Position numbers and translations under genes: made by a program. Below the pieces are notes generated by a model. It was not told the DNA's origin. It saw nothing but the letters and a program-made list of their open reading frames with translations, and did no database searches. From NCBI GenBank assembly GCA_963696285.1, contig CAVOJP010000004.1, forward strand, positions 305,578 to 369,577: DNA of 64,000 bases, written 5' to 3'. This DNA is from an uncultured Acidobacteriaceae bacterium. Lineage in GTDB: Bacteria; Acidobacteriota; Terriglobia; Terriglobales; Acidobacteriaceae. Below are positions 41,710-59,664 of the stretch, piece after piece (the first letter of the stretch is position 1; every line of letters starts with the position of its first letter).

Positions 41710-41736
41710 CAATTGGACCTTAGTATCGGCGACACC
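41710..41736 (-). promoter_or_regulatory. GTCCAATTG-box motif, site a (upstream of P460 remnant)
   Basis: caattggaccttagtatcggcgacacc on the + strand. About 94 nt from the GTG at 41616. Confidence 0.5.
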
Positions 41737-41823
41737 TTCATCTCCGGCGTGCGGCGGAAAGTTCCTCGACTTCGATCGATTTTCAAGACTGGACGCAGGC
41801 GGATTGATTGCGCTACCGCACTT

Positions 41824-41858
41824 GATACAAAAGTATCGGCGATACTATCGTCCAATTG
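41824..41858 (+). promoter_or_regulatory. GTCCAATTG-box motif, site b (upstream of SnoaL-DoxX)
   Basis: gatacaaaagtatcggcgatactatcgtccaattg. 69 nt from the ATG at 41927. Confidence 0.55.
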
Positions 41859-41926
41859 CGGGGCGTAATTTGTTCTGGCTGAATGCCGCTAGAGCATTCA
41901 GCTTCTGTCAAATTGGAGGGCTCAAG

Positions 41927-42361
41927 ATGAATGCTCAAGCAAAGACCGATCAGCAAAAGACAGAGCAGGATCCTGGAGCGCGAGATCTAGAGATCCGCAC
42001 GGCACTGGATCAGCATTGGGCAGCGTCCGATGCCAACGATTTTGAAACGGAGCACCTCATCTATCAAGAGGACGCGGTGCTCGATTATCCGCAGTCAGGC
42101 GAGCGAACCCGCGGTCGTAGCAACATACAGGGCCAACGCGCGAGTCAGCCGAACAAAAAGCGGTTTACTGTCCAACGAATCATCGGCAGCGGTGATCTCT
42201 GGGTCACTGAACTCATCTTGACATATGACGGCAAGCCGTCCTACACCGTGAGTATTATGGAGTTCGTCGGCGACAAGGTTGCGCGGGAAACCCAGTACTT
42301 CGCGGATCCATTTGTGGCTCCTACATTTCGCGCTCAATGGGTCGAACGAATGGAAACATAA
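41927..42361 (+). CDS. SnoaL-like / NTF2-fold protein
   Basis: ATG 41927 preceded by GGAGGG. WAASDANDFETEHLIYQEDAVLDYPQSGE is typical of SnoaL_2-like proteins. Confidence 0.7.
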   Translation: MNAQAKTDQQKTEQDPGARDLEIRTALDQHWAASDANDFETEHLIYQEDAVLDYPQSGERTRGRSNIQGQRASQPNKKRFTVQRIIGSGDLWVTELILTYDGKPSYTVSIMEFVGDKVARETQYFADPFVAPTFRAQWVERMET

Positions 42362-42409
42362 TCTCGAGGCGCCAGAATTCGCTAACAACTTCCGATGGAG
42401 GGATGAGAC

Positions 42410-42883
42410 ATGGATTGGAAGCGGTTGGTCCAGTTTGCGCTGCAGGGCAGCGGTGATTGGGAACAATTTGCCATCCTGCTGGTTCGGGTTTCGATCGGGC
42501 TGTTCTTCGCCATCTCCGGGGGAAACAAATTGTTTGTCGCCGGCGGCACGAAGCCTGTTTACGAAACGCTGGTGCAGGCGAAAGTCCCATTTCCCCGGCA
42601 GACGGCTTATTTCGTGGCCGGTGTCGAGTTTGTTGGCGGATCCTTGGTGACCGTGGGGCTTCTTTCGAGCCCGGCCTCGGTGGCTTTATTGATCGACATG
42701 GTTGTCGCCACCCTGACCAGCGCGGTTTCCACCTTGCCGAAAGGACTTTCGCCACTCAGCTGGCTCGACGATTTCCTCTACTTTCCGGAAGTCCTCTACG
42801 TGCTCTTTTTTGTATGGCTGATCTGCTCTGGTCCGGGAAGGTTCAGTATTGATTACTGGCTCGCCGGCAAGTTAGTGGGGTGA
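42410..42883 (+). CDS. DoxX family membrane protein
   Basis: LLVRVSIGLFFAISGGNKLF and four TM helices. Confidence 0.8.
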   Translation: MDWKRLVQFALQGSGDWEQFAILLVRVSIGLFFAISGGNKLFVAGGTKPVYETLVQAKVPFPRQTAYFVAGVEFVGGSLVTVGLLSSPASVALLIDMVVATLTSAVSTLPKGLSPLSWLDDFLYFPEVLYVLFFVWLICSGPGRFSIDYWLAGKLVG

Positions 42884-42946
42884 TCCACCGTAGCAAATCG
42901 ATTCGGCAGCTGCAGAAAACCGATTGAGACGCGCGGTGGAAGGCCC

Positions 42947-43447
42947 TTAAGGCAGCGGCTGCCAGAGCTCAATCTTATTGCCGTCCGAGTCATAGATCCA
43001 GGCAAAGCGACCGTAGGATTCATCCATTCGTTTGGCGTCTATCTTTACTCCCTCTTGTCTTAAGCGGTCGAGCAAAGCATCCATATCGTCCACGATGTAA
43101 TTGATCATGAACGGTTGGCTGGCGGGGAAATAATTCGAGGAGGAGGCAAAGACAGTCCAAACTGTAACGCGTTCTTTTTGCGGGTCGTCGTGTTCGCGCC
43201 AGGGAAGCATCGCTCCCTGGCCCTTGTCAGCGAGTCCAAGATGCTTCGAATACCATTCGCGCGCCTGATCACGGTTCGCGGATTTGAAGAAGACACCGCC
43301 GATTCCAAGGATGCGTCCTCGCTGCTCCACTTTGACGGGCGGCTTCGACTTTTCAGCTTGCGGAGATTTCACGTCCTGTCCTCCCTTTGAGGCCGAGATG
43401 AGCAACAGCGATCCGAGCGCAATTGTGCTCCACGGTATGCCTTGCAT
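42947..43447 (-). CDS. secreted VOC (glyoxalase/bleomycin-resistance fold) protein
   Basis: Signal peptide. ILGIGGVFFKSANRDQAREWYSKHLGL and a C-terminal FAWIYDSDGNKIELWQ. Confidence 0.75.
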   Translation of the reverse strand: MQGIPWSTIALGSLLLISASKGGQDVKSPQAEKSKPPVKVEQRGRILGIGGVFFKSANRDQAREWYSKHLGLADKGQGAMLPWREHDDPQKERVTVWTVFASSSNYFPASQPFMINYIVDDMDALLDRLRQEGVKIDAKRMDESYGRFAWIYDSDGNKIELWQPLP

Positions 43448-43581
43448 GCGCGGGATTATACATCGGGCAATTCGAATCTAGAAAATCGCCTCGCCACCCT
43501 ACGCTTTTTCGAGACGCGATGCTCCATCGAACGCGAGCGCAGATAGTTGAGATTAAATCCGCACCACGTCCGGGCCCAGCG

Positions 43582-44040
43582 CTAACCGTAGGTGACGGTC
43601 GTACTCTGTCCGACTTCGATGATGTAACCGTCAGGATCGCGGATGTAGCAGCGAATCTCGCCGTACTTGGGGATCGGCTCCGTGATGAACTCGGCTCCTC
43701 GACTTTTCCACAATTTGTAGCACGCTTGAATATCTGCAACGCGGAAATTCATGAAGCTGTTGATGTGATTCGGGTCGGGAACGCTGAGCGTTACCGTTGG
43801 CTTATCCGGGGTCGGGCCGCCGCCAACGTTCAGAATCATCCAGATATTCGCCAACTGGAGGTACGGGGGCGCGTTTCCATCCCCCATGGTCAAAATGCGA
43901 GCGCCGAAGACCTTTTCGTAGTAATGAGCCGATCGGTTGACGTCGGCGACGGTGAGAAAATGCGCAATGCTCATCCCTTCTTTCGGGGGCATCTCATAGC
44001 TCTTCTGGTCGATTTGTACGACGTTGGTTGCGGCATCCAT
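43582..44040 (-). CDS. VOC family protein
   Basis: ATG 44040 preceded by GGAG. The track's GTG at 44124 is less likely. C-terminal CYIRDPDGYIIEVGQ. Confidence 0.75.
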   Translation of the reverse strand: MDAATNVVQIDQKSYEMPPKEGMSIAHFLTVADVNRSAHYYEKVFGARILTMGDGNAPPYLQLANIWMILNVGGGPTPDKPTVTLSVPDPNHINSFMNFRVADIQACYKLWKSRGAEFITEPIPKYGEIRCYIRDPDGYIIEVGQSTTVTYG

Positions 44041-44104
44041 TGCTGACTCCAATGTCGATTCGGTGTCCCGCCGAATACGAGGCGCCGTGATCGCAGTGCT
44101 CACG

Positions 44105-44187
44105 ATTACTCTTATCAGCGGCACTTCGATTAAGCCAGAAGTGCAACGTCGAGTCTATTGGACGAACGTATCGGTAACACCAAAGTA
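44105..44187 (-). repeat. Copy A of a roughly 83-bp duplicated upstream region (contains motif site g, 44155-44181)
   Basis: attactcttatcagcggcacttcgattaagccagaagtgcaacgtcgagtctattggacgaacgtatcggtaacaccaaagta. Near-identical to 45377-45460. Confidence 0.8.
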
Positions 44188-44224
44188 GGATTGGAACACA
44201 TGTGGGGGATGGGCGGGTGGCGCA

Positions 44225-44262
44225 GTTTTTTGATCTCGCTGGCATCATCAACACGGTGGGTG
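44225..44262. repeat. 38-bp direct repeat, copy 1
   Basis: gttttttgatctcgctggcatcatcaacacggtgggtg. Second copy at 44357-44394 with 3 mismatches. Confidence 0.8.
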
Positions 44263-44356
44263 GGAGGAGAAAATTCGACAGAGCGCGAGTTGAAGATTAG
44301 TAGGGTGTCAGCGAAGACCCCCACTTCTCGCAAAGAACGCGAGAAATGGGGCGCCC

Positions 44357-44524: not shown

Positions 44525-45338
44525 TTATGCCGCTGAAGCCACCTTCTTCTTCTCACTGAGTGCCGGCAGAAGAAGTTTCACAAGCGCTTCATCAGAGAAC
44601 GGGTTCTGACCCGAGATCAGCTCGCGATCTTGAAGAACGTAACTCGACCACGGAGCGAGCACACTTACGTCACCGCCCGCCGTACGCAGGGCGAAGTCCG
44701 GGTAGAAGAGAACCTTACCGCCAATCTCCAACGGTTCCCGCTGCTGCTCTTCCGCTGTCGAGAAGATCGTCATCTTATACCCAGCATAGATCCAACCCTT
44801 CGCTTTTTCGTGCGCTCCAGCGGCATCGCCCGCCGCTAGCGCCGCGACCACTTCCCACGAATTCGGAAGCGCCGAGAGCAATGAAATCGGGCCATGGCAG
44901 AGCACTGCCGTAGGCTTCGATGTTTCATGAAAGTGCCTCATCACGATGCCCGCATCGGGATCATCGAGCAGATCCATCCATCGGGCCATGGCCGCCGGGG
45001 ACAAAAACAGCGTCATATTGATCCAGGCCCGATGCGATGACATCCGCGATGCGCATTGGATCTCTGAGCCCCTTCAGGCCGTCGCGGAATAGCATATAGT
45101 CCTCAAGCTTGGCCGCGTCCCCGCCGAAGAAATCGGGGACCTCTGAATGCACATCCACTTGCGGCGTGTTGCCTTTGGGGTTGGCGAAGGTGATTTCGTA
45201 GCCCTCCTTCATCAGGGCGCGAACCGGAACCGTCAGTTCGTTGAGGTAATAGCCCGCGCCGGTGTAAACCTTGCCATCTTTCAAGGGCAAACCGCGACCG
45301 CTCGAGACTAGAACTAAGACTTTTCCTTTAGTTGTCAT
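44525..45338 (-). pseudogene. DJ-1/PfpI (type 1 glutamine amidotransferase-like) gene split by a frameshift
   Basis: ORFs 44961-45338 (...VFVPGGHGPM) and 44525-45043 (MDLLDDPDAG...AVLCHGP) are the two halves of one protein. The junction reads ATGGATGG (+ strand ccatccat, 44974-44981). Confidence 0.75.
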
Positions 45339-45376
45339 TTTGTTCTCCTTTTTGAAATGGAATTCTGTTTTCCTGA

Positions 45377-45460
45377 ATTGCTCTTATCAGTGACACGTCA
45401 ATTAAGCCAGAAGCGCAACGTCGAGTCTATTGGACGAACGTATCGACAACACCAAAAGTA
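45377..45460 (-). repeat. Copy B of the roughly 83-bp duplicated upstream region (contains motif site h, 45427-45453)
   Basis: attgctcttatcagtgacacgtcaattaagccagaagcgcaacgtcgagtctattggacgaacgtatcgacaacaccaaaagta. Confidence 0.8.
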
Positions 45461-45539
45461 CGGGACGGGGAGATATGGGCAGCTAGTGGTGTGGCTGGCC
45501 GATCTCTTCTGCTGCCCGGAAAAGCCAACAGCTTTCTGT

Positions 45540-46306: not shown

Positions 46307-47212
46307 TTACGCCCCCGGGAATCCAAACATCAACCATGACTGATTGGCCACCCAGTGCGGGTATAGCTCCGTCATCTGATCGAACAGCTCCTGGTCAGAC
46401 TTGGCGGTTTTCTGCAGCCGATCGAAGTCCTCGAGGTAACGCTTGGTGTCCTGGATCGTCGAGGGAGAGTCGGGCGCGCCAGGCTTCTTGTGACCGGCGA
46501 CAACCATCGTCGGGTTCAGCGCTGCTAACCGGTCCAGGTCCGCGATCCAATTCTTTCGGCTCTCGGGGGTGGTGTCGCCGACGTACATGCGGCATTGGTT
46601 GTATACAACGTCGCCGGCGACGATCAGGCCGATCGATGGAACGTAGAGAGACGTGGAATCGGGACTATCGGTGCGGCCCTGCTTGATGATGCGTAATTCC
46701 TGGCCTTCGAGAGTGAACGTGTCTTGCTCATAGGGCTCCGGTGGAACCAGCTTGGTGGGCACTTGCCCAGGAAACATCCCGCGGGCTAGCCGCTCCACTA
46801 CGGGAGTGAAAGACGGTTGCATGGCGTTCACAGCCTCAGGCGTTGCTATGGCCCGCGCACTCGGGAAATGGTCGAGCAGAATGCTCAGACCGTAGAAGTG
46901 GTCGAAATGGGCGTGCGTTATATAGATAGTCTCCAGGTTGCGGTTGTGCAGAGCGATCCAAGCCGCGAGAGCCTCGGCCTCAGCCACCGTCCCCATTGCG
47001 TCCACCAGCACCGCGTCATACTCGCCGAAGATTAAAGTCGACGTGATTGGGTCAAAGCCGAGTGCTTCGCCGAAGGGCTTGGGCCGCTCGCCGACCATAG
47101 CCTTTCCCGGCGCGGTAAAAATGTTCACACTCAGCGTGTTCGACTCAGGCTTGGTCGACCCGACAGGCGCGGTTGCGCGCGTTGTCTCCTTCGGTCCATT
47201 TTTGCTGGCCAT
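46307..47212 (-). CDS. MBL-fold metallo-hydrolase
   Basis: ITHAHFDHF motif. 301 aa. Confidence 0.85.
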   Translation of the reverse strand: MASKNGPKETTRATAPVGSTKPESNTLSVNIFTAPGKAMVGERPKPFGEALGFDPITSTLIFGEYDAVLVDAMGTVAEAEALAAWIALHNRNLETIYITHAHFDHFYGLSILLDHFPSARAIATPEAVNAMQPSFTPVVERLARGMFPGQVPTKLVPPEPYEQDTFTLEGQELRIIKQGRTDSPDSTSLYVPSIGLIVAGDVVYNQCRMYVGDTTPESRKNWIADLDRLAALNPTMVVAGHKKPGAPDSPSTIQDTKRYLEDFDRLQKTAKSDQELFDQMTELYPHWVANQSWLMFGFPGA

Positions 47213-47297
47213 TGATACCCTTTCGATTGCTTCCGAAAAGCAGATTCTGATTGAACCCGCAGCGTGACGTTATAAAAGCAGAAGAGTGGGCTTTGAA

Positions 47298-47317
47298 CAA
47301 TTGGACGATGGTATCGG
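47298..47317 (-). promoter_or_regulatory. GTCCAATTG-box motif, site c (upstream of the MBL hydrolase gene)
   Basis: caattggacgatggtatcgg. 86 nt from the ATG at 47212. The distal part of the motif is not conserved. Confidence 0.45.
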
Positions 47318-47346
47318 TTGTGTTTTTGTGCGGACGGTGCTCGAAA

Positions 47347-47581: not shown

Positions 47582-48496
47582 CTACGTACGGGTCAGCGTG
47601 TCGACTGGTTTGTCCAGAGTCGGTCGATGTGGAGGCGATAAAGTGCTGCTCGCCTTTGGGAGTCTTCTGCAATAAAGGAGGAAGGTGATTGCCCCAACAG
47701 GAGCGCATATGATGATTTGCCAAGGGCCATAGGCCGCGACGGCCACACTGACCGGTGGGAACTGAACGTTTAGAGGTGTGAATGTCCACTGCCCAGTAGT
47801 CCAGTTCACGGTGACGCGGAGCACGCCAACCAACATCGCGAGCAACCAGAACCACTTCTTCTTGCCGATCTTGGAGCGGATGCAAAGCACGAAGGCATAT
47901 AAAGTAATTCCGACCACCACAAGGGCAAGCGATAATCCGGCATACTGAGAAACGCCTTTGTCCGCAAGGGAGAATTCGTTCATCTCTTCGAAGGACCTCG
48001 AAGTCGGGGTGACGGCGAGCCCGCGAATAGTCCTGGCACCATCACTCCTCAGGATCACAACCCGCGCTAGCAGCCAGCTTCGGGGTTCCAACTCTGTGCG
48101 CCCGCTCATTGGCATTATCTGCGGTGCGAACTCGTATTCCAAAGTAATGTGGGTTGTAAAGTCATTGCGGCCACGGACAGTCCCCGCCTCCATAGTTTTG
48201 ATCGAAGCTGGTTGAGCACTGGGGAACATGTCGTGCATTCTGGCCAGTTCGTCACGTATTTGAGCATTTCTGATGCTGGGATCGAGCTGATCTTCAAGCT
48301 GGTCGAGTCGACCCTGCCGAAGCAGATCGACTGAGTGTAGGGCAAACACCTCGTCCTCTCGCGGCATGGTTCCATACAAGAGGTCGTCTCGAGTATAGCC
48401 GTACAATTTGAAGTAGCTCTCTCGGTCGCACCCCACAAGAGGCAAGAGCAGAAATAAAATCAGGGCTGACAGCAGGGCTATGGAAATCCTTCTCAC
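47582..48496 (-). CDS. hypothetical membrane lipoprotein
   Basis: Lipobox LLPLVGC. A soluble domain of about 170 aa, then 3-4 TM helices. No family recognised. Confidence 0.6.
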   Translation of the reverse strand: MRRISIALLSALILFLLLPLVGCDRESYFKLYGYTRDDLLYGTMPREDEVFALHSVDLLRQGRLDQLEDQLDPSIRNAQIRDELARMHDMFPSAQPASIKTMEAGTVRGRNDFTTHITLEYEFAPQIMPMSGRTELEPRSWLLARVVILRSDGARTIRGLAVTPTSRSFEEMNEFSLADKGVSQYAGLSLALVVVGITLYAFVLCIRSKIGKKKWFWLLAMLVGVLRVTVNWTTGQWTFTPLNVQFPPVSVAVAAYGPWQIIICAPVGAITFLLYCRRLPKASSTLSPPHRPTLDKPVDTLTRT

Positions 48497-48747
48497 GTGG
48501 ACAGGACCTTACTCCAAATCCCACAAAAATTCCATGTCAGTTGTTGTAAACAGGCGATTACACTCAGAACCCACGCCTTGCGGTTAATAAGTGCAGCGGG
48601 GATTTTGCAACAGTTATAACTCATTGCATAGCCTACCAGATGGGTGTACAGTGTGACCCTCTCAGGGAAACATCAACGGGGACCGCGGAAAAAAGAAAAA
48701 ACCCAGGTGATCTGATTCAGTTCATCTTCAGTAATGGAGGCGAGGAG

Positions 48748-49725
48748 ATGGCCAGTAATAAGAGTCGGGCGCAATCGGAAGTGCCGCAGTTTTTTGTCGT
48801 CAATGAAGCCGCGCGGGCGAATTTGGCGCGCCGCTTTCTGGAGTTCCAGCAGAAGAAACAAAAGCAGATCCAGGAAAGGAATGCGACCTTGCTGCAGATG
48901 GCAAAGTATCTGGGCGAGGTTCAAGGAGAGGCAAAACCTTCATCCCGTGATCCGAAAACGGCGAAGGCTCTGAAGGGCCTTCTGGGAATCCATGAAAAGC
49001 TCGCGAATCAAAAACTTGCACCACCAAGGGCCGCGCTCGGAATCGGCGGTGTCAACTATACCGTCACTGTTTCGCCGCCCTACGACTACTACCCGAAACC
49101 CATTCTCTCGACCGATCCCGAGGTATCTCAACAACCTATTCTGACGGGCTCCGCCGACCCAACCGCTGGACAACTGAGCACCAGCGCCGTCACATCTTCG
49201 CAGCCGGGCTATAGCGGCGGTGACACGTATGTCACTCTGGGGATCTATTTTCCATTCGTCCCGCCGATGCCCGGCACATTGACGGCTTACGCGAACCCCG
49301 TATATTCATTTGAGTGCTGGACCGAATCCTATTTCCCTCCCAATTCCAATGCGCCCTTAGCCCGCGCGCGTTCTTTCCTGTCGGGATCACTTAACATCTA
49401 CGGTACAATCCCCGGCAACCCTCCACCGACCTATGAAACCGTCGCGGGGCAGCAGTTCTTCTCTCTTAATCAGCAAACGCCAAGCGTGCAAGCTCCAGGC
49501 CCCCTCCTCTTAGAAGACGGCTTTAACTTGCAGACGTCTGTGTCCGTTTCAACACCTGTAGATCCGAGCCAGGCGTACATGATATTCGTCTCTGTGGAGA
49601 CTCTAGCGAACGGCTATGGCTCGCTCGGCAGCATCGCAGGTGCGATGTTGTCCGTGACCGTTCCTTCGATAACCTACAACTTCGTATCGCCTGCGGGGCC
49701 TGGTTTCCCGCTGCCAGGACGATGA
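48748..49725 (+). CDS. hypothetical protein (orphan)
   Basis: ATG 48748 preceded by GGAGGCGAGGAG. Helical, charged N-terminus, then a Pro/Ser/Thr/Gly-rich beta-type region. No signal peptide. Confidence 0.55.
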   Translation: MASNKSRAQSEVPQFFVVNEAARANLARRFLEFQQKKQKQIQERNATLLQMAKYLGEVQGEAKPSSRDPKTAKALKGLLGIHEKLANQKLAPPRAALGIGGVNYTVTVSPPYDYYPKPILSTDPEVSQQPILTGSADPTAGQLSTSAVTSSQPGYSGGDTYVTLGIYFPFVPPMPGTLTAYANPVYSFECWTESYFPPNSNAPLARARSFLSGSLNIYGTIPGNPPPTYETVAGQQFFSLNQQTPSVQAPGPLLLEDGFNLQTSVSVSTPVDPSQAYMIFVSVETLANGYGSLGSIAGAMLSVTVPSITYNFVSPAGPGFPLPGR

Positions 49726-50237: not shown

Positions 50238-50306
50238 TTTTCGATTTCCCTTTCGCGTCCACTGTTCGCCAAAATAATGTCCACAAAATGATGTTTGCAA
50301 ATAATG

Positions 50307-51404: not shown

Positions 51405-51938
51405 TTAGCAATGGCTCGTCTTCGCCGAAGTTCGGTATTTCGCCCACTTCAGTACGTCCCAGATCTCGCACTGCAGGTAAAAACCTGACGAAATAGAGGG
51501 CGCTATTACCCCTTCGCTAACCGCATCCTGAACGACTTCATGTACTGCTTCGTAACCCGGAATCTGGACTCGCTTGGCGAGTTCGATCACTTCTCGTGCT
51601 GGAAGTGCGTGTTCAGCAATCATCGAAAGCAGTAACATCAGGCCGTCGGGACCCGCGAACCGGTCCAGCGCTAATCCTTCTACGATGGCACGGTTCTTTC
51701 TGAACTCGGCTCGCGGATTATATTGACAGCCGTGTGGCTTTCGCCCGCTTGGGCTTATGTTCCGACGGTGCACTAACCGCAAACCACTTACTTTCGGTTT
51801 TCCCCTGGCGTCCTCTGCCGCAAGCCACTCCACCCAGCCTGCCTGGAAATCTGATATAAGTTCGCCACAACTATCACATCGCCAACCGGATCGAATGGAT
51901 TTTTCTCGAGACATAATATTCACCAACATCAGAGACAA
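51405..51938 (-). CDS. hypothetical protein (orphan)
   Basis: 177-aa ORF (or 169 aa from MSREKS at 51914). CDSC near the N-terminus. No family recognised. Confidence 0.5.
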   Translation of the reverse strand: MSLMLVNIMSREKSIRSGWRCDSCGELISDFQAGWVEWLAAEDARGKPKVSGLRLVHRRNISPSGRKPHGCQYNPRAEFRKNRAIVEGLALDRFAGPDGLMLLLSMIAEHALPAREVIELAKRVQIPGYEAVHEVVQDAVSEGVIAPSISSGFYLQCEIWDVLKWAKYRTSAKTSHC

Positions 51939-52011: not shown

Positions 52012-52554
52012 TCAACGGCTCACCGCTTGCATTTCAGGTTCGAGAACATGATCGGTCACCTGGGTTGGCTTCGACGTGCTCAAAATATTTTTGGCCTTCG
52101 CTACCTCAGCGGAAGTTCCATGAGCAACCACCAGGTACTGGCCGGCTTTTATGGCGGTCTCGTAGGTCACGATGCTGTCTTTGGGTATGCCTATGCTGTA
52201 CAGGCCGGCACCAATAGCGCTCAAACCGCCGACCGCCACCGCTCCTTCCAGGCCTGCAACGATCCATGCCACCAGCGGACCGCCCACCAGCACTGGACCG
52301 ATCCCGGGTACCCAGAAGAATGCGGCACCGACTAGCAAGCCCCAGAATCCACCCCAGAAAGCGCCCCACTTTCCCCAATACTTCATGCGGTCTCCCGCGT
52401 TGTAGTAGCCAACGACTTGCTCGTCGGTGTGATAATCCTTCCCCACAACTGACAACTTCTTCATGTCGAAACCTGACTTCTGAAGTTCCTTCACGGCATC
52501 TTCCGCTGCCGTGTGACTGTCATACACTGCAATCACTGCATTTGTGTCCGTCAT
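52012..52554 (-). CDS. general-stress-type membrane protein (YflT-like N-domain + glycine-zipper TM, DUF1269-like)
   Basis: AVYDSHTAAEDAVKELQKSGFDMKKLSVVGKDYH, then a Gly-rich TM segment. Confidence 0.7.
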   Translation of the reverse strand: MTDTNAVIAVYDSHTAAEDAVKELQKSGFDMKKLSVVGKDYHTDEQVVGYYNAGDRMKYWGKWGAFWGGFWGLLVGAAFFWVPGIGPVLVGGPLVAWIVAGLEGAVAVGGLSAIGAGLYSIGIPKDSIVTYETAIKAGQYLVVAHGTSAEVAKAKNILSTSKPTQVTDHVLEPEMQAVSR

Positions 52555-52650: not shown

Positions 52651-52986
52651 TTAACCCTGCGCCCGGTGTTCGCGCGTGGCAACGCCTTTGGCGGCAGCCT
52701 CTCTTCTATTCTTTTGCGGATGAATGCCCAGGTCGTGCCATGACGTTTCTGCGAGGTTGACGCCGTAGTAGTTTGCCGCTTTCTCGATGTTCGCGAACGC
52801 CAAAGCGCGATCGGCATCCGAGACGTCGATGACTTGATCAAACCGCGCCACGGCGTTACGCACATGTTCTGCATCGGTGAGTGGTTCTTTACGCTGCTTC
52901 GGAAATGCGTAGACGCTGTCGGGCAAGTCGCTCTGCGTCGTCAGCCGTCCGTGTTTTTCGTGAGGTTTCCAGGTAGCTTCCTGCAT
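52651..52986 (-). CDS. DUF6582-like small protein
   Basis: LPDSVYAFPKQRKEPLTDAEHVRNAVARFDQV matches my recollection of that family. Confidence 0.6.
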   Translation of the reverse strand: MQEATWKPHEKHGRLTTQSDLPDSVYAFPKQRKEPLTDAEHVRNAVARFDQVIDVSDADRALAFANIEKAANYYGVNLAETSWHDLGIHPQKNRREAAAKGVATREHRAQG

Positions 52987-53051
52987 GTCTTTACCATCCT
53001 TTCTGCAAGTAGTTAGATGGATGTGATTACACGCGAGGTGCTCCGGCGAAT

Positions 53052-53086
53052 CAATTGGACGATGGTATTGGCGATACCTTGGTATC
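53052..53086 (-). promoter_or_regulatory. GTCCAATTG-box motif, site d (upstream of DUF6582 / DUF1269 genes)
   Basis: caattggacgatggtattggcgataccttggtatc. 66 nt from the ATG at 52986. Confidence 0.55.
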
Positions 53087-53192
53087 AGCGAGGATGAGCT
53101 GTGAATTAATGCCGCGACTCAGAACGCCGGATTAAAGAAAACGCGACGCGGAGAGACAAAAGCGGCCAGGAGCGTATCAGGGTGCCGATGGC

Positions 53193-53567
53193 TCAATTCA
53201 CTCGGAGTGCGGTATTGAGAGCGTCAAGCAGAGCCGTATCGCTGAACGGCTTGAACAAGCACTCCACCGCCCCCTGCTCGAGAAGTCGCGGGCGAACAGT
53301 CTTATCGGTGCTGGCGGTGATAAAGATAATCGGAATCTCCTGCCCGCGACGCTTCAATTCCCGCTGAAGGTCGGGTCCGCTCATTCCCGGCATGGCGATG
53401 TCGAGCAGCAGGCATTTGGTTTGGGGGGCGCAACCGGACGCGAGAAACTCTTCCGGCGACGAGAAGGCGCGGGCTGCAAAGCCGAACTCGTTTAGCAAGT
53501 CTGGTAGCGACTCGCGGACAGATTCGTCGTCATCCACCACCGATACAAGCGAACGCGTGACTGTCAT
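53193..53567 (-). CDS. single-domain response regulator (FixJ-type receiver, no output domain)
   Basis: VSVVDDDESVRESL, LLLDIAMPGMSG, IIFITA, FKP. Confidence 0.9.
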   Translation of the reverse strand: MTVTRSLVSVVDDDESVRESLPDLLNEFGFAARAFSSPEEFLASGCAPQTKCLLLDIAMPGMSGPDLQRELKRRGQEIPIIFITASTDKTVRPRLLEQGAVECLFKPFSDTALLDALNTALRVN

Positions 53568-53780: not shown

Positions 53781-53807
53781 CTATTACACCTTAGTATTGG
53801 TATTAGC
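53781..53807 (-). promoter_or_regulatory. GTCCAATTG-box motif, site i (degenerate; upstream of the single-domain RR)
   Basis: ctattacaccttagtattggtattagc aligns with site a (caattggaccttagtatcggcgacacc). 214 nt from the ATG at 53567. Confidence 0.35.
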
Positions 53808-53911: not shown

Positions 53912-56107
53912 TCACGCCGCGTCTGTTACGTCAGGCGTCCGAAAGGCTCGATTACTTTCGGCGTCCGTCGCGCCTTCGGATGCGCGAGGAATTGAGAATG
54001 AAAACGTTGCCCCCGGACCTTTATTCAGTGTTGCACGTAGATGACCGTGATGACCCTCGATAATGGAGCGACTGACGGAGAGTCCGATTCCCATACCGTC
54101 ATTCTTGGTGGTGTAGAACGATTCAAAAAGTCTTTCCACGGCTCGCGGGTCGAAACCGGTTCCTGCGTCCTGTACGGTGAGGCTTACGCGATCGCCTTCG
54201 TCTCGTTCTGTTCTGATCAGCAACTGCCTCGGACGATCGTCGACGCTGCTCATCGCGTCTGATCCATTCCGGATCAGGTTCAGGATGACTTGCTGCAACT
54301 GGACGCGATCTCCTGTAACCGGAGGGAGGTCGTCGGCAAGTTCCGGCCGCAGGATCACCCGGTTTCGCTGAAGTTCGCTCACTGACAGCGCAATTACCTC
54401 TCTGGTGGCCTCGTTCAGGTCTACGGATTCGATCGTGTGCTCTTTTTTGCCATACAGTGCTCGCAATCGAGTGATCACCTCAGAGGCTCGGTTGCCATCG
54501 CGAATCGTGCGCCGGGCGGTCTCGCGGGCGCCGTCCACGTTGGGAGGATTGGCGGCCAACATTCGCAAACACGTACTGGCGTTGGTGACGATGCCCGAAA
54601 GCGGCTGGTTGACCTCGTGTGCGATCGACGCCGTCAATACTCCAAGGCTCGTCACCCTGGCCACGTGCGACAGCTGTGATCGGGCTTTGCTCAGTGCCTC
54701 TTCGGAGAATCGGCGTTCAGTTACGTCCTGAACTGCGCCGATGTACTCCAGCTTGCCTTGGTCGCCACGGCTGTGAGCTACGACGTCTACATACTTAACA
54801 GTGCCGTCGGGCATCTGCAGGCGGAGCTCGAGTTGCACGTCGCCGCCGTCCCGCCGAGCTCGCTCAATATGTTCCCGGAATACTGATAAATCTTCCGGGT
54901 GGATTCGAGTGCCGATCAGTTCAAAGGTCACCTGCGCATCCCGGTGAATCTGGAAAATACGATAAAGCTGCTCTGACCATGTGATGTCGTCGGTCGCTAC
55001 ACGCCAGGAGAAACTGCCGATTCGACTGAGATACTGGGCTTCCGCGAGAAACGCCTCGCTGCGCTGCAGTTCCTGCTCTGCCCGTTTGCGTTTCGTAATG
55101 TCGCGCAGATAGCCGGTGAAGGAGGGCGGCCCTTCCAGCGGAATGCGTGTAACTGCAAGCTCGACAGGGAATTCGCTTCCGTCAGCACGCACTGCCGTCA
55201 TCTCGATGCGTCTCCCGAGCACTCGCGCTTCGCCCGTAGCCAGGTAGCGGGCGAAGCCCAGCCGATGCTTCTCCCGAAGTGACGGCGGGATGATGACCTC
55301 GGCCAGTTGCTTGCCCACGACGGCATCCCGAAGGTGCCCGAAGGTCCGCTCTGCAGCCGGATTGAACTCGGTGATGCGACCTTCGTGATCGATCGTCACA
55401 ATGCAGTCGAGAGCCGATTCCACGATCGCTGCCTTGAGGACCTCACTTCGCTTCAGTTCCTTCTCTTCTTCCCCCAGCCTCTCTTCCATGAGTCTGCGTT
55501 CGGCCAATTCCTTTTTAAGCTCATTGTTGGCGGCGGCAAGTTCGGCAGTCCGTTGCATGATCCGTTGATCAAGTTCGTTGGCGACCCGCTTCTGCTGGCT
55601 CAGGAGCCGTGCCTCCTGTAGCCCGATCGATGCCTGATTCGCCGCCACGCTCAGAAGAAGTGCCTCGGTTTGCAGCGGAAAATCCGGTCGCTCGGCCGCC
55701 GCCACGATTGTGCCGAGTTCACCCTGTAACCCCAGTGGCAGAGGCACGATCGAAACGTCTCCCTCGCCCATAAGGCTGCGCAGCAGCGGAGGCCATTTCC
55801 CTGAGTCGTTTTTGGAATACTGGCTGAGCGCTTCGCAGATCTCGTGCGCCGGGAGCATCGGTCGTTGTCTTTGCAGCTTGGCCAGCCGGACGATCTCAAC
55901 CGCCGCGTCGCCCACCGGATCTGTCAGCCTTACGGAGACCAGGTCCAGGCGCAGCATCCGCAGGAGCGCATCGAGCAGGGTTTCGAGAACCTGGGATGGA
56001 TTGCCCCCACTCCAGATGGCGGGAAGAGCAAGCAGGCTGACAAGATCGTTTATGCACCGTTGCAGGTGCTTGACTTCGCCAGCAGCGAGTTCGGGTTGGA
56101 CTTTCAT
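53912..56107 (-). CDS. GAF-PAS-PAS sensor histidine kinase
   Basis: ATG 56107 lies 1 nt after the MEDS gene stop. H-box SIAHEVNQPL. N/G boxes IRNGSDAM and GMGIGLSVSRSI. Coiled coil plus two PAS-like segments. Confidence 0.9.
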   Translation of the reverse strand: MKVQPELAAGEVKHLQRCINDLVSLLALPAIWSGGNPSQVLETLLDALLRMLRLDLVSVRLTDPVGDAAVEIVRLAKLQRQRPMLPAHEICEALSQYSKNDSGKWPPLLRSLMGEGDVSIVPLPLGLQGELGTIVAAAERPDFPLQTEALLLSVAANQASIGLQEARLLSQQKRVANELDQRIMQRTAELAAANNELKKELAERRLMEERLGEEEKELKRSEVLKAAIVESALDCIVTIDHEGRITEFNPAAERTFGHLRDAVVGKQLAEVIIPPSLREKHRLGFARYLATGEARVLGRRIEMTAVRADGSEFPVELAVTRIPLEGPPSFTGYLRDITKRKRAEQELQRSEAFLAEAQYLSRIGSFSWRVATDDITWSEQLYRIFQIHRDAQVTFELIGTRIHPEDLSVFREHIERARRDGGDVQLELRLQMPDGTVKYVDVVAHSRGDQGKLEYIGAVQDVTERRFSEEALSKARSQLSHVARVTSLGVLTASIAHEVNQPLSGIVTNASTCLRMLAANPPNVDGARETARRTIRDGNRASEVITRLRALYGKKEHTIESVDLNEATREVIALSVSELQRNRVILRPELADDLPPVTGDRVQLQQVILNLIRNGSDAMSSVDDRPRQLLIRTERDEGDRVSLTVQDAGTGFDPRAVERLFESFYTTKNDGMGIGLSVSRSIIEGHHGHLRATLNKGPGATFSFSIPRASEGATDAESNRAFRTPDVTDAA

Positions 56108-56108
56108 A

Positions 56109-56762
56109 TCAGGCAGCCGTGGACACCGAACGCCGCGCAGCCCGACGCTGACGGACCTCGTGCAGAAATTCCTCGGGTGGCACGTAGAACGGATTCCGGT
56201 GCAGGAGGCCACCGATGATGATCATCGGATGCGTCCGCATAATGTCGATCACCGTGTCGCCTCCAAATTTGCTGAGCTGGTAGGTGCAGATCACCGCGTC
56301 GTCGTGGCTACGCCATACACTGTTCACACGCGATTCGAATTCAACGACATCGTCAATATAGGATTGATCTTCAATTGCCCAATCCATGCGGCAGCAGATG
56401 CGGCTCAACGGGAATCCTCCCTTGGCATTGCCGCTCGCCATCTGCTCAAATGCGGCCAGCATTCGATCCTGATCAAAACGGCCGTCCCGAATGTAAGCTT
56501 CGGTGTTGATCCGAACCTCTAATTGGCCGCTCTGCTCAGCAGCTGCTGGGTCGATTCCGACTGCGGTCAACCGTTGAAGATGGTCGCGACGTTGATCCGG
56601 GTTGACCACGTGGACCGCCTTGTCACCGACCTTGAATCCGTCGGTAATGAAGGGAAGCAGCACGCGATACTCTTCGTCGTCGCTATTGAAAAATGCGCAG
56701 ACATGACGTACCTCGCCGAGATGGGAACCGGCTAGGGAAATCGGTGTTGAGTTTTTCTTCAT
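56109..56762 (-). CDS. MEDS-domain protein
   Basis: RHVCAFFNSDDEEYRVLLPFITDGFKVGDKAVHVV is typical of MEDS (DcmR-like sensory) domains. Confidence 0.75.
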   Translation of the reverse strand: MKKNSTPISLAGSHLGEVRHVCAFFNSDDEEYRVLLPFITDGFKVGDKAVHVVNPDQRRDHLQRLTAVGIDPAAAEQSGQLEVRINTEAYIRDGRFDQDRMLAAFEQMASGNAKGGFPLSRICCRMDWAIEDQSYIDDVVEFESRVNSVWRSHDDAVICTYQLSKFGGDTVIDIMRTHPMIIIGGLLHRNPFYVPPEEFLHEVRQRRAARRSVSTAA

Positions 56763-56939: not shown

Positions 56940-57575
56940 TTACGCCGCCGTCGTCGCTGCGGGCACGGGGCGGAGTCTCGCGGCCATTTTCACTAGGTCG
57001 GCAAGAGAGCTGGCCTTCATCTTTTGCATCACCTTGCCGCGGTGCGCCTTCACCGTGATTTCGCTGATACCAAGCTCCCCGCCGACTTGTTTATTCAACA
57101 GTCCGGAAACCACCAACGCCATCACCTGCTGTTCGCGTTGGGAAAGCGACGCGTAACGCTCCCGGAGCACCCGCATCTCGGCATCTTTGCCGAGGGCAGC
57201 ACTGCTGCGCGCGAGAGCTGCCCGAATGGCGGTTAAGAGCACGTCATCATTGAATGGTTTGGTCAAGAATTCGACAGCCCCCGCCTTCATGGCTTGGACC
57301 GTCATGGGCACATCGCCGTGGCCCGTGATGAAGATGATCGGCATATCCGTCCGATCGCCGGCGACGAGCCGCTGGAGGTCTAGCCCGTTGAGACCGGGAA
57401 GAGAAATGTCAAGTACGAGGCAGTTGGGAATAAGGACGCGTGGATAGTCGAGGAATTCCTGGGCGGACGGAAATGTCTCCGGCTGCCAACCTGCACAGCG
57501 AATCAGCAGTTCCAGCGATTCGCGTACGGAGACGTCATCGTCAACAACGAAGACGATTGGCGTGACTTGCAACAT
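56940..57575 (-). CDS. FixJ/LuxR-family response regulator
   Basis: VFVVDDDVSVRESL receiver. LSQREQQVMALVVSGLLNKQVGGELGISEITVKAHRGKVMQKM HTH. Confidence 0.92.
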   Translation of the reverse strand: MLQVTPIVFVVDDDVSVRESLELLIRCAGWQPETFPSAQEFLDYPRVLIPNCLVLDISLPGLNGLDLQRLVAGDRTDMPIIFITGHGDVPMTVQAMKAGAVEFLTKPFNDDVLLTAIRAALARSSAALGKDAEMRVLRERYASLSQREQQVMALVVSGLLNKQVGGELGISEITVKAHRGKVMQKMKASSLADLVKMAARLRPVPAATTAA

Positions 57576-57741
57576 TTGCGGTCACCCCGTTTCATGGCCA
57601 AGTACGCGCACCGCAAGTCATTCTTCGCGCACAATTGACTGACCACGCCCCATCGTTGAGCAAATTCTACCAGAGAGCCCTCCCGTTTGTGCAGGAAGGA
57701 TCTCGACCACCTTTGTGGCCAGGGCTCATCGCAGCGGATCT

Positions 57742-57776
57742 GATACCAAAGTATCGGCGATACCATCGTCCAATTG
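57742..57776 (+). promoter_or_regulatory. GTCCAATTG-box motif, site e (best copy; upstream of cytochrome P460 gene 1)
   Basis: gataccaaagtatcggcgataccatcgtccaattg. Contains the perfect palindrome GTATCGGCGATAC. 269 nt from the ATG at 58045. Confidence 0.55.
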
Positions 57777-58044
57777 TTCGCCCAGCAAACTTCTGATCTG
57801 ATCCGTCTATGTCTTATTACCCGACACCATTTACCGGACACAATCCAGCGTCCTCGACCGCCGCGGCGCAAAACGTTATCAACTCACTCGCCGCACAGAA
57901 AGCCGCTTAGGCTCCGATTTCGATCGCTGCCGGCTCGTCTGGGGCGTCCGTTGCGCCAGCCAGGATTAAACAGGTATCGTCCCGGCCGTTAGGTTCGCTA
58001 TAGATACACGTGACAAATAAGCATCTCGGAACGGGGTACATCGT

Positions 58045-58566
58045 ATGAAAGGATTTGCTTACCTGTTGGTTGCAGTTGTGGCGCTCAACGGCGTGGTCGT
58101 TTACATGGCTCATGCCTCCAGACGCTCCGATGGAGAGGCTGATCCGGTTTTCGGAATCACAATTCCTCCTGGATACCGCGACTGGAAGCTGATCTCTGTG
58201 GCCCACGAAGCAGGCAATCTCAACGATCTTCGCGCCCTTCTCGGCAACGATGTAGCGATCAAGGCATACCGCGAGGGGAAGCTGCCGTTCCCGGACGGCA
58301 CAATCATCGCACGCCTGGCCTGGAGTTATGTTCCGTCCGAGGAAAACAACAAAGTCTTCGGCCGTTCCCAATCTTTCGTAGCCGGACCCGCCACGAACGT
58401 TCAGTTTATGGTCAAGGACTCGATGAAATATGCCGCAACCGGAGGCTGGGGGTTTGCTCAATTCAAAGATGGCAAACCTGCCGACGCGGCGCTGCTGAAA
58501 ACTTGCTTTCCCTGCCACGAGCCTGTCAAAGATCGCGACTTCGTTTTCACCCAGTACGCGCCCTGA
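58045..58566 (+). CDS. cytochrome P460 family protein
   Basis: Signal/TM N-terminus. C-terminal CFPCH heme motif followed by DFVFTQY. 173 aa. Confidence 0.85.
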   Translation: MKGFAYLLVAVVALNGVVVYMAHASRRSDGEADPVFGITIPPGYRDWKLISVAHEAGNLNDLRALLGNDVAIKAYREGKLPFPDGTIIARLAWSYVPSEENNKVFGRSQSFVAGPATNVQFMVKDSMKYAATGGWGFAQFKDGKPADAALLKTCFPCHEPVKDRDFVFTQYAP

Positions 58567-58581
58567 TTACGGGGAGGTCCC

Positions 58582-58917
58582 ATGGATAAGGAAGAAACGG
58601 TTCGCAATTCAACTTGTGAAGAGCAGATCAGTATGGCGGAGCACGAGCTATCGGCCTTCATCCGTGCGGTGACGGAGTTGTTCGATACAGAGCAGGCCAG
58701 GCTTTCGGCAGAGGACTGGCTCGACGAGTTGGAGTTAATGGATAGCCCGCACGGAGCCACGAGGACAGAGTGGCGAGCGGTCACAATAGCAGCCACGGCT
58801 CGATTGGCAAATCGGGCTACTCCAGCCCGGGGTCATCGAGCGCTCACGAAATTGACTGACACGAAAGTTTCACCAATACCATGGTCCAATTGTTTCGTAT
58901 CCGCGCTTCTGCTCTGA
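58582..58917 (+). CDS. hypothetical small acidic protein between the two P460 genes
   Basis: 111-aa ORF (or from MAEHEL at 58633). No family recognised. Its 3' end contains motif site f. Confidence 0.45.
   Translation: MDKEETVRNSTCEEQISMAEHELSAFIRAVTELFDTEQARLSAEDWLDELELMDSPHGATRTEWRAVTIAATARLANRATPARGHRALTKLTDTKVSPIPWSNCFVSALLL
58867..58892 (+). promoter_or_regulatory. GTCCAATTG-box motif, site f (upstream of cytochrome P460 gene 2)
   Basis: gtttcaccaataccatggtccaattg. 159 nt from the ATG at 59051. Confidence 0.5.
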
Positions 58918-59050
58918 TGTGTGGTTGCGGATGATGACCGGTCTACGCGCAAACCGCTCAAGGGGGCCACGCCGATGAAGAGGCATCGACGTCGGCTCTA
59001 GAACAAAAACTGATTTCGTTTACCCAGGCACATTGAATGGAGGAACCGTG

Positions 59051-59569
59051 ATGAGACGCTTCACATTCTTTTTGATTGCAGTTGCAACAACGGCTGGCCT
59101 TGCCGCGCTCCTTGGCGCCACCTCCGGTCACGCGGACGAGCAATCCGCCCCCTACGTTACCGACATCCCGCAAGGGTATCGCGACTGGCAGTGGGTCTCC
59201 TCGGCGCATGAAGCTGGCAAGCTCAACAGTCTAGGTGCCGTCCTGGGCAACGATGTAGCGATCAAGGCCTTCCGGGCAGGGACGCTTCCGTTCCCGGACG
59301 GCGCGATCATTGCTGCTTTGCATTACCGTAACGTGCCGTCGGAGGAAAACAACAAAGTCTTTGGCCAGGCTCAATCTTTCGTTCCCGGCGCCCCAACGAA
59401 CATTCAGTTTATGGTCAAGGATTCGAGCAAGTACGCCGCAACCGGTGGCTGGGGGTTCGGTCATTTCGCGAACGGCAAACCTGGCGATGCGGCATTTATG
59501 AAAAGCTGCTTCCCCTGCCACGAGAAGACCAAAGCGACGGACCTTGTCTTTACTCATTACGCCCCTTGA
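59051..59569 (+). CDS. cytochrome P460 family protein (paralogue)
   Basis: MRRFTFFLIAVATTAGLAALLG signal. CFPCH then DLVFTHY. Long identical stretches with 58045-58566 (LGNDVAIKA, LPFPDG, VPSEENNKVFG, KYAATGGWGF). Confidence 0.85.
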   Translation: MRRFTFFLIAVATTAGLAALLGATSGHADEQSAPYVTDIPQGYRDWQWVSSAHEAGKLNSLGAVLGNDVAIKAFRAGTLPFPDGAIIAALHYRNVPSEENNKVFGQAQSFVPGAPTNIQFMVKDSSKYAATGGWGFGHFANGKPGDAAFMKSCFPCHEKTKATDLVFTHYAP

Positions 59570-59638
59570 AAATCGCTGGCTTCGCTTCCGATTGGTTGCA
59601 GGACTTTTCGAAAAAGAGAACAATCCTTGCTGTCTGGT

Positions 59639-59664
59639 GTATCGAGTGTCCTGCCGTCCGCTCG
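59639..59664 (+). promoter_or_regulatory. possible weak GTCCAATTG-box-like site upstream of DUF4331
   Basis: gtatcgagtgtcctgccgtccgctcg keeps GTATCG-N10-CGTCC spacing but loses CAATTG. 83 nt from the ATG at 59747. Confidence 0.2.

Follow-up and report, generated by a model that had tools for sequence, protein, structure and literature searches.

A recurrent oriented promoter module beside a FixL/FixJ-like two-component system in an Acidobacteriaceae genome and its Terriglobia relatives

Eight copies of a 64-nt module

In the genome of an uncultured Acidobacteriaceae bacterium (assembly GCA_963696285.1, contig CAVOJP010000004.1, positions 305,578 to 369,577), we analyzed a stretch of 64,000 nucleotides, referred to as the window and numbered from its first letter, in which an oriented DNA element recurs upstream of genes around a FixL/FixJ-like two-component system. 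A preliminary description had listed ten sites for this element, one of them as a weak relic; eight of the ten proved to be real. The full element is a 64-nt oriented module, GATAC-N4-GTATC-N3/4-CRATAC-N4-GTCCAATWG-N15-TCTG-N3-TRAT, and the eight window sites, aligned toward the downstream gene, give the consensus ctGAtAC-N4-GTaTCgcCgATAC-N2-TcGTCCAATtG-N15-TTCTG-N3-TaAT. Conservation thereby extends 26 nt downstream of the motif as first described, with TCTG at +24 and TRAT at +31 (counted from the G of GTCC).

These copies are far beyond chance expectation. The pattern ATAC-N4-GTCCAATWG occurs eight times in the 64-kb window and in none of 100 dinucleotide-preserving shuffles; GTCCAATTG alone, with one mismatch allowed, is not enriched in the window (17 matches versus 14.6 expected). 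A 64-column weight matrix scores the eight sites at 61 to 80 bits and the next best position in the 64 kb, on either strand, at −14 bits; the matrix was trained on these same eight sites, and it is the gap rather than the absolute score that is meaningful. All eight copies lie within 41.7 to 58.9 kb, and the matrix scan finds none in the remainder of the window, including the first 41 kb, where inspection by eye had not noticed the motif in intergenic regions. Each of the eight faces a gene, with 40 to 243 nt between the TRAT block and the gene start and approximately 66 to 270 nt between the end of GTCCAATWG and the start codon, in agreement with the range originally given. Spacers and flanks differ among the copies while the boxes are common to all, the exception being one duplicate pair (copies 3 and 4).

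Pfam confirmed the earlier labels of the genes behind the modules. Copy 1 (41683-41746, − strand; 71 bits) is of the class in which GTCCAATWG contains CAATTG and still precedes a decayed type-2 cytochrome P460 gene (41099-41660, − strand). An N-terminal remnant of this gene, VPKLVTKSVAEEQQ, lies at a normal distance of approximately 68 nt downstream and matches the N termini of intact orthologues, and a P460 fragment occupies another open reading frame (ORF; 41099-41398). Divergent from copy 1, copy 2 (41822-41885, + strand; 69 bits) precedes SnoaL (41927-42361) and DoxX (42410-42883) genes, and its orthologous promoter is almost identical in many relatives. Copies 3 (44128-44191, − strand; 75 bits) and 4 (45400-45463, − strand; 67 bits) belong to the CAATAG class. 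The former precedes a VOC/glyoxalase-fold gene (43582-44040) and probably also drives a second VOC gene (42947-43447). The latter precedes a DJ-1/ThiJ gene (44525-45338, − strand) that falls into two ORFs, overlapping but differing in frame (44961-45338 and 44525-45043; 125 and 172 amino acids), where relatives carry one gene of approximately 270 amino acids. The split reflects either a frameshift pseudogene or an assembly error in this metagenome-assembled genome (MAG); the promoter module itself is intact. Copy 5 (47271-47334, − strand; 61 bits), with degenerate distal half-sites, precedes a gene for a metallo-beta-lactamase-fold (MBL) hydrolase (46307-47212).

The remaining three copies head longer gene strings or adjoin the regulatory genes. 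Copy 6 (53025-53088, − strand; 80 bits) is followed by DUF6582 (52651-52986), YflT/DUF1269 (52012-52554), a 177-amino-acid ORF, a zinc alcohol dehydrogenase gene (Zn-ADH; 50307-51212) and a zf-UBP gene (49878-50300), and this string recurs in a relative (locus L126). Copy 7 (57740-57803, + strand; 79 bits) diverges from the regulator gene and precedes cytochrome P460-1 (58045-58566); it carries GATAC at 57742-57746, GTATC at 57751-57755, GATAC at 57759-57763, GTCCAATTG at 57768-57776, TCTG at 57792-57795 and TGAT at 57799-57802. Copy 8 (58856-58919, + strand; 79 bits) precedes P460-2 (59051-59569), DUF4331 (59747-60745), an alpha/beta hydrolase gene (60766-61656) and an SDR gene (61702-62445).

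Two of the sites first listed do not belong to the series. The site at 53781-53807 contains a partial core look-alike (53781-53800, − strand; CCAATAC-TAAG-GTGTAATAG) that scores 16 bits with a core-only matrix and −29 bits with the full one; it lacks the TCTG/TRAT block and has no counterpart in relatives. The site at 59639-59664 (+ strand), taken for a weak relic, scores −25 to −35 bits and is instead part of the conserved 5′ leader of DUF4331, aligning with the leader past the module in two relatives (loci L032 and L034).

The copies also hint at how they arose. Copies 3 and 4 align as duplicates over approximately 110 nt, including approximately 25 nt of leader. The P460-2 promoter (copy 8) is homologous to the DUF4331 promoter of L032 and L034, and the region upstream of DUF4331 in the window matches only the leader part of that promoter; P460-2 therefore sits between an old promoter and its leader. 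The regulon thus seems to grow both by promoter copying (copies 3 and 4) and by insertion of a gene behind an existing promoter (P460-2), which gives the locus an interest of its own for promoter evolution.

Several further features of the window were recorded. The DUF4331 leader (59570-59746 in the window, 1802-1906 in L032, and in L034; ..CCAGTSGAG..GAAGYGATYTTCGAAGTRCTGARTATGCARAGAA..AAGGAGAAG) holds a short inverted repeat, has no Rfam match and could be an RNA-level control element. The leader between module 7 and the P460-1 start (57804-58044) is unusually long at 243 nt and measures 198 to 221 nt in the orthologous loci L010 and L032. The zf-UBP gene (49878-50300, − strand), which encodes a bacterial protein with a ubiquitin-hydrolase-type zinc finger, ends the DUF6582 operon, a position kept in L126 (1-329). 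Three sizeable ORFs of the regulon region have no Pfam or NCBIfam match: 47582-48496 (− strand, 304 amino acids), 48640-49725 (+ strand, 361 amino acids) and 51405-51938 (− strand, 177 amino acids). The first 41 kb holds housekeeping genes (tig-clpP-clpX-lon, dcd and others) and several genes for PilZ proteins; the latter are dense at 1953-15039, with five in 13 kb, two of them with GAF or Sel1, near a GAF-AMIN-amidase gene. The window is without tRNA genes.

Conservation and downstream genes in relatives

The module recurs in Terriglobia genomes. We scanned a 596-Gb collection, one genome per species, with RATAC-N4-GTCCAATWG-N15-TCTG, a pattern for which approximately 70 chance matches are expected overall at 34 bits, and analyzed the stretches matched (at least 119) as 119 8-kb loci, referred to as motif-found loci. 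Among the 80 matches listed, 78 are from Acidobacteriota (Sulfotelmatobacter, Terracidiphilus, Acidoferrales, one Solibacter, and the isolate Tunturiibacter psychrotolerans). The other two are bona fide sites in MAGs labeled Dormibacteraeota (L051, 29 bits) and Binatia (L065, 48 bits), which could reflect mis-binning or horizontal transfer; the scan sets a lower bound and so does not itself show absence outside the Acidobacteriota. The matrix finds at least 212 sites in the 119 loci, of which at least 181 are distinct at 25 bits or more. Columns outside the search pattern are conserved as well: among 181 sites, C at −10 occurs in 177, T at −2 in 173, C at −1 in 151, T at +31 in 149, and A at +33 and T at +34 in 166 each, in addition to TT at +10/+11.

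Orientation toward a gene, which the preliminary description had taken as the mark of a promoter or operator, is a property of the relatives too. In the motif-found loci, where genes were called by a crude longest-ORF/codon-score method, 151 of 174 sites share the orientation of the next gene as given by the longest-ORF caller; the 23 exceptions mostly involve short opposite-strand ORFs. When ORFs are judged by codon usage, 163 of 192 sites have a coding ORF beginning no more than 450 nt downstream, whereas 103 of 192 have one on the opposite side. Start codons lie most often 50 to 75 nt from the TRAT block, with a median of 83 nt.

We also examined six loci fetched through orthologues of the regulator described below (L001-L006). 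Here the order of regulator, MEDS gene (where present), kinase, receiver-only gene and DUF6582 is kept, modules precede P460, VOC, enoyl-CoA hydratase (ECH), HbpS-like, hydrolase and OsmC-EHN genes, and every module site faces an independently called gene (eight distinct sites in L001 and L004). Across genera, orthologous copies of the module are kept upstream of orthologous genes.

The same families recur downstream in the motif-found loci. Most frequent is P460 (23 sites), followed by DJ-1 (11), DUF6582 (10), MBL and outer-membrane efflux protein (OEP; 9 each), VOC (7 + 5), SDR (7), ECH (6), beta-carbonic anhydrase and HbpS-like (5 each), and DUF4331, Zn-ADH and EgtB-like (4 each); smaller groups include hydrolases, epoxide hydrolase, cupin, YceI, a sigma-54 activator and an extracytoplasmic function (ECF) sigma factor. 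Some families are bound to one promoter class in the loci examined: OEP and one VOC type are always behind CAATAG modules, and DUF6582, ECH, HbpS, DUF4331 and EgtB-like genes are always behind CAATTG modules. Taken by their names, these families suggest a regulon for defense against reactive nitrogen, carbonyl or oxidative stress. In the literature that could be searched we found no description of the motif, motif strings matching unrelated primers only, and nothing relevant on Acidobacteria with FixL or P460.

The neighboring two-component system, operator and candidate sigma factor

Between copies 6 and 7 lie the genes of a FixL/FixJ-like system, all on the − strand. The gene at 56940-57575 encodes a FixJ/StyR-type response regulator (REC and GerE helix-turn-helix domains by Pfam), a candidate binder of the GATAC boxes. 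Its closest solved structures are StyR (1yio, 6e-58) and Bradyrhizobium japonicum FixJ (5xso, 1e-46); its best NCBIfam match is FixJ (NF006900) at 215 bits, under the equivalog cut-off of 255. The protein is 100% identical to one from a Candidatus Sulfotelmatobacter MAG and approximately 90% identical to very many Terriglobales proteins; the organism itself is a Candidatus Sulfotelmatobacter (Acidobacteriota). Next comes a MEDS-domain protein (56109-56762; Pfam MEDS, 2e-41), weakly similar to the N-terminal part of RsbA-type anti-sigma factors (NCBIfam, 50 bits against a cut-off of 210). Its stop codon lies 1 nt from the start codon of the kinase gene (56105-56111), as in L001, which suggests that the two genes may be translationally coupled.

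The kinase (53912-56107) consists of an N-terminal region, a heme-type PAS domain, a second PAS domain, HisKA and HATPase (Pfam, PDB and NCBIfam). Its DHp/CA region matches FixL at 3e-48 (PDB), and the PAS domain at approximately residues 250 to 387 matches the FixL heme domains 1d06, 1dp6 and 8js5 at 1e-17 to 1e-19; the histidine in ..SLREKH-RLGFARY aligns with the proximal histidine of FixL, so that heme binding is predicted from sequence. FixL is also the best NCBIfam match, at 275 bits against an equivalog cut-off of 850. In Acidobacterium capsulatum, a sensor histidine kinase of uncertain relation to the present system, ACP_1638, is up 84-fold at 0.1 µM O2 (PMC11636273). The fourth gene (53193-53567) encodes a receiver-only response regulator (Pfam; NCBIfam FixJ receiver, 93 bits), whose position is kept in relatives and which is a possible feedback or phosphate-sink partner.

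This system accompanies the module well beyond the window. Orthologues of the regulator (70% identity or more) occur in 19 of the 119 motif-found loci, those of the MEDS protein in 15 and those of the kinase in 10. By chance, given a genome of approximately 5.5 Mb, a single-copy gene would be expected in approximately 0.2 loci, and the module is approximately 100-fold enriched near orthologues of the regulator and of its MEDS, kinase and receiver-only partners. In every regulator-centered locus a module occupies the divergent intergenic region beside the regulator gene, with synteny. It lies 114 to 349 nt upstream of that gene, on the opposite strand, in 7 of the 19 loci, in the window and in L001-L006, and is never co-oriented with it; the regulator is therefore not transcribed from a module. 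The boxes of the divergent module are close enough for autoregulation. Pfam identifies no other DNA-binding regulator among the genes of the second half of the window, and the ORFs scanned in the first 41 kb include no sigma factor and no CRP/FNR regulator. These results sustain the earlier choice of the adjacent FixJ/LuxR-type regulator as the best candidate.

Additional observations concern the regulatory genes themselves. A sigma-70-like site, TGCACA-18-TG-n-TAGAAT (57664-57693, − strand), lies approximately 90 nt upstream of the regulator start and approximately 50 to 80 nt from the GATAC boxes of module 7, and is plausible by its sequence as the regulator promoter. In L004-L006 (8428-9763) and L128 (863-1657), the module divergent from the regulator precedes small ORFs and a HisKA_3-type kinase; such kinases usually pair with LuxR-family regulators, and this one may be a second kinase input under regulon control. 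A second FixJ-like paralogue, 52 to 54% identical, lies near the main regulator in L034, L067, L106 and L038 and might serve the CAATAG promoter class.

Within the module, two parts can be distinguished. The downstream part behaves as a core promoter. TCTG stands at +24 in 159 anchors, with 7 at +25 and 6 at +23, and TRAT is displaced with it in all seven of the +25 cases; because the two slide jointly, TCTG-N3-TRAT is a rigid block behind a 1-nt-flexible spacer, as a −10 element would be. This block, 24 to 34 nt downstream at promoter-like spacing, places GTCCAATWG at the −35 position and rules out the earlier suggestion that CGTCC is itself an ECF −10 element. Other element types were considered and rejected. 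CTGGC resembles the −24 box of a sigma-54 promoter, but a conserved GC at the spacing such a promoter needs is lacking, and the regulator does not belong to the AAA+ activators; GCCGATAC resembles the FliA (sigma-28) sequence GCCGATAA, but there is no TAAA at −35 spacing. As for an RNA element, Rfam 15 gives no match in the whole window at gathering score, and conservation ends at +34, upstream of the likely start.

The upstream part consists of half-sites that differ between the two classes. In the CAATTG class (118 sites) three are clear: GATAC at −26, GTATC at −17 and RATAC at −9. In the CAATAG class (61 sites) CGATAC at −9 is invariant, whereas the distal and middle half-sites are weaker and stand one base further out, at −27 and −18. 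Since these two move as a pair against the proximal half-site, the simplest units are GATAC-N4-GTATC and GATAC-N4-GTCCA. The operator would then comprise two tandem 14-bp inverted repeats with centers 17 to 18 bp apart, and the perfect palindrome GTATCGGCGATAC, previously taken to suggest a dimeric regulator, is probably not the binding unit. In every class, CRATAC-N4 before GTCCAATWG is as invariant as the box itself. GTCCA is weak as a fourth half-site, and its extreme conservation probably reflects double duty at −35.

One ECF sigma subfamily is a recurrent member of the regulon. Its gene lies directly behind a module in five motif-found loci, and a module is upstream in four of four loci fetched by protein similarity alone, where the four genes sit in the same gene neighborhood. 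In L126, L128, L129 and L130 a CAATAG-class module ends approximately 70 nt before the ECF start codon, and L055, L075, L083 and L124 also have a module directly upstream of the ECF gene. Members of the subfamily are 75 to 80% identical in many Sulfotelmatobacter and Terriglobales assemblies. Such an arrangement is a hallmark of ECF autoregulation and equally expected of a core regulon member.

Regulatory models and known systems

Taking the observed anatomy, conservation, orientation, gene content and co-location of the module together, we consider it probable, though by no means assured, that the module is the shared promoter cassette of a direct regulon under the neighboring FixL/FixJ-like system (MEDS protein, heme-PAS kinase, receiver-only protein and FixJ/StyR-type regulator). 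Regulator binding, half-site pairing, transcription start, sigma factor and signal are read from the sequences as follows. The phosphorylated regulator would bind as dimers to the two tandem inverted repeats. The proximal one (GATAC-N4-GTCCA) is invariant and overlaps −35, and its center would be at approximately −42 if transcription starts approximately 7 nt after TRAT; the distal one (GATAC-N4-GTATC), strong in the CAATTG class and weak in the CAATAG class, would be centered at approximately −60. The bound regulator would recruit RNA polymerase to a core made of CCAATWG, a 15- to 16-nt gap and the rigid TCTG-N3-TRAT. That core would be read by an alternative sigma factor, for which the conserved ECF sigma that itself carries the module is the prime candidate, and a feed-forward loop would result. 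The likely signal is a heme ligand, O2 or NO, and the output would be periplasmic cytochromes P460 together with glyoxalase-fold, DJ-1, MBL, DoxX and reductase/hydrolase genes.

Several points weigh against this model. Co-location of module and regulator is association, not binding. GTCCAATWG is more conserved than the GATAC half-sites, and GTCCA agrees with GTATC at only 2 of 5 positions. The operator centers at approximately −60 and −42 presuppose the start assumed above, as do all positions relative to +1. TRAT, approximately 90% conserved, is unaccounted for by an ECF-type −10 element. The ECF copies are only 38 to 52% identical across genera, which is odd for a sigma factor reading an invariant box, and neither the window nor, in L001-L006, the stretch up to 10 kb from the regulator holds an ECF gene. 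Many logo columns are fixed by the search pattern, and the scan, as a lower bound (at least 119 stretches), gives neither sites per genome nor taxonomic limits.

A bolder form of the model, which we consider unlikely and put forward only tentatively, makes each module an AND-gate promoter at which a dedicated ECF sigma factor would be required as well as the phosphorylated FixJ-like regulator, in a coherent feed-forward loop through which the heme-PAS kinase, modulated by the MEDS protein, would switch a class-wide O2/NO-responsive detoxification regulon. Were this so, dominant soil Acidobacteria would share a class-wide O2/NO detoxification regulon of cytochromes P460, glyoxalase-type enzymes and DoxX.

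The rival that survives best, though we judge it unlikely, dispenses with the regulator at the promoter: GTCCAAT would be the −35 element and TCTG the −10 element of an autoregulating ECF sigma factor, the FixJ-like regulator would only activate the sigma gene or be a mere neighbor, and the GATAC boxes would be accessory or otherwise bound. ECF promoters of the RpoE/AlgU type have the form GAACTT-N16-TCTGA, and the module core is like them in its AAy −35 element, 15- to 17-nt gap and TCTG. The would-be −11 position carries no A, a module always precedes the ECF gene, and no classic anti-sigma gene lies beside it (in the loci examined there is no anti-sigma Pfam family there, the next genes being HSP70-like, DUF2934 or on the opposite strand), as fits transcriptional control. 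Yet the fit of CCAAT, 17 nt and TCTG is a loose one, and known ECF promoters have much shorter conserved blocks: the invariant CRATAC-N4 before GTCCAATWG is too long for a sigma region-4 contact, and three GATAC half-sites are conserved in the 118 CAATTG-class promoters. The TRAT block stays unexplained here as well, and the ECF copies diverge widely between genera, against 70 to 90% identity for the regulator.

Doubtful, in our view, is also class II activation of the housekeeping sigma holoenzyme, in which the regulator would rescue a weak extended −10 promoter and no alternative sigma factor would take part. The geometry of all three sigma-70 elements is exact: TTG lies at +6 to +8, TG at +26/+27 and a hexamer ending in AAT at +29 to +34, with a spacer that varies only between 17 nt and, in a minority, 18 nt. 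Rhizobial FixJ and StyR moreover use sigma-70-type polymerase (PMC2442086, PMC4999443). However, only 9 of 181 sites have an A at hexamer position 2, the would-be A(−11), which is thus avoided rather than degenerate, and no register in the 181 sites combines A(−11) with T(−7). A sigma-70 consensus scan requiring A(−11) calls none of the eight modules, and finds TTGACA-17-TAGAAT, TTGACA-17-TACAGT and TTGACG-18-TACACT just upstream of clpP, dcd and tig in the same window; these are consensus matches only, and they suggest that the housekeeping sigma factor of the host is conventional and that the module core would not be of its type. We therefore favor an alternative sigma factor.

Repression appears very unlikely. 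GATAC/GTCCAATWG would in that case be an operator at which the regulator, sitting on the −35 element, keeps the genes off until a signal arrives. Such a reading is favored by the overlap of the most conserved block with the −35 position and by a report of nifH repression by unphosphorylated FixJ in Rhodopseudomonas palustris (PMC13327599). Against it, the core is non-canonical and identical in all copies, as is typical of activator- or sigma-dependent promoters, whereas promoters under repression usually retain strong cores of their own; activation is also the better fit for upstream sites at approximately −60. That the module is a repetitive or mobile element (REP- or MITE-like), or a product of recent local duplications without regulatory meaning, is scarcely credible: copies 3 and 4 are indeed duplicates and all copies cluster in 17 kb, but the other copies have boxes rather than spacers or flanks in common, orientation is strictly tied to the downstream gene, orthologous genes keep their copies across genera, and no Rfam family matches.

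A direct regulon under the FixL/FixJ-like system, the reading we prefer, would matter for several reasons. Terriglobia rank with the most abundant bacteria of soil and peat, and their gene regulation is almost undescribed. The module is long, nearly invariant and easily scanned, and could define a regulon with its candidate sensor, regulator and possibly sigma factor in cultured strains and thousands of MAGs. It would link an O2- or NO-type heme sensor with periplasmic P460, glyoxalase-fold, DJ-1 and MBL proteins, which bears on life under fluctuating redox and on reactive nitrogen and carbonyl stress.

Known systems resemble this one in part. FixL-FixJ of rhizobia and Caulobacter is the nearest in its proteins: the kinase PAS domain is homologous to the FixL heme domain with its proximal histidine aligned, the DHp/CA region is closest to FixL, and the regulator has FixJ as its best NCBIfam match and matches solved FixJ strongly. 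In Caulobacter, the gene for FixT, the feedback receiver of FixLJ, follows the kinase gene, just as the receiver-only gene follows the kinase here. Promoter geometry is also shared. FixJ footprints on fixK extend from −69 to −44 and from −57 to −31, and fixK promoters have CSNAATWT in common at −33 (PMC4999443); the AAT-containing −35 box of the module resembles this sequence, which is its sole resemblance to the FixJ operator. The differences are nonetheless considerable. Scores stay below the equivalog cut-offs, an extra, apparently translationally coupled MEDS protein is present, and the operator is GATAC-based, unlike the TAAGTAATTTCCCTTA-like 16- to 18-bp palindrome of the rhizobial FixJ box. 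A CRP/FNR-type gene that could act as a FixK relay is missing both from the scanned ORFs of the window and from the Pfam lists for L001-L006, which cover genes up to 10 kb from the regulator, and eight direct-looking promoters lie in 17 kb; in contrast to the textbook FixLJ cascade, the regulator appears to control dozens of promoters directly through a well-defined operator. Genes for P460, glyoxalase-fold, DJ-1 and DoxX proteins take the place of cbb3 oxidase and nif genes as targets.

Among proteins of solved structure, the regulator is closest to StyR, of the StyS-StyR/TodS-TodT systems of Pseudomonas. The StyR/TodT box is an inverted repeat with a 4-bp spacer (ATAAAC-CATG-GTTTAT), the same layout as GATAC-N4-GTATC. 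Phosphorylated StyR dimers activate from a high-affinity site at approximately −40, and tetramers form with an upstream site (PMC2442086). The predicted tandem-repeat layout (approximately −60 and −42) matches by analogy the published StyR and FixJ geometry. Those systems, however, serve one catabolic operon through double-kinase aromatic sensors, whereas here a heme-PAS kinase, many promoters and another half-site are involved. DosS/DosT-DosR of Mycobacterium tuberculosis offers a different parallel: heme kinases feed a LuxR/NarL-type regulator with some tens of direct target genes, which it reaches through a palindromic box that is often present twice immediately before −35. A heme sensor kinase feeding a LuxR/NarL-type regulator with a direct regulon is the common plan, but DosS and DosT sense through heme-GAF rather than heme-PAS domains, the DosR box (TTSGGGACTWWAGTCCCSAA) and gene content differ, and homology is only at the family level. 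Response regulators also assist at some RpoE/AlgU-type promoters, such as algD, and in addition to the core elements already compared, the sigma gene there stands behind its own promoter type; the module differs in the invariant and much longer block upstream of −35, in its extra TRAT and in the absence of an anti-sigma partner from the loci examined. The regulon signature is real, and it is FixLJ-like in its proteins and layout and DosR-like in its apparent direct action on many promoters, with an operator of its own, an unusual core and, possibly, a dedicated ECF sigma factor.

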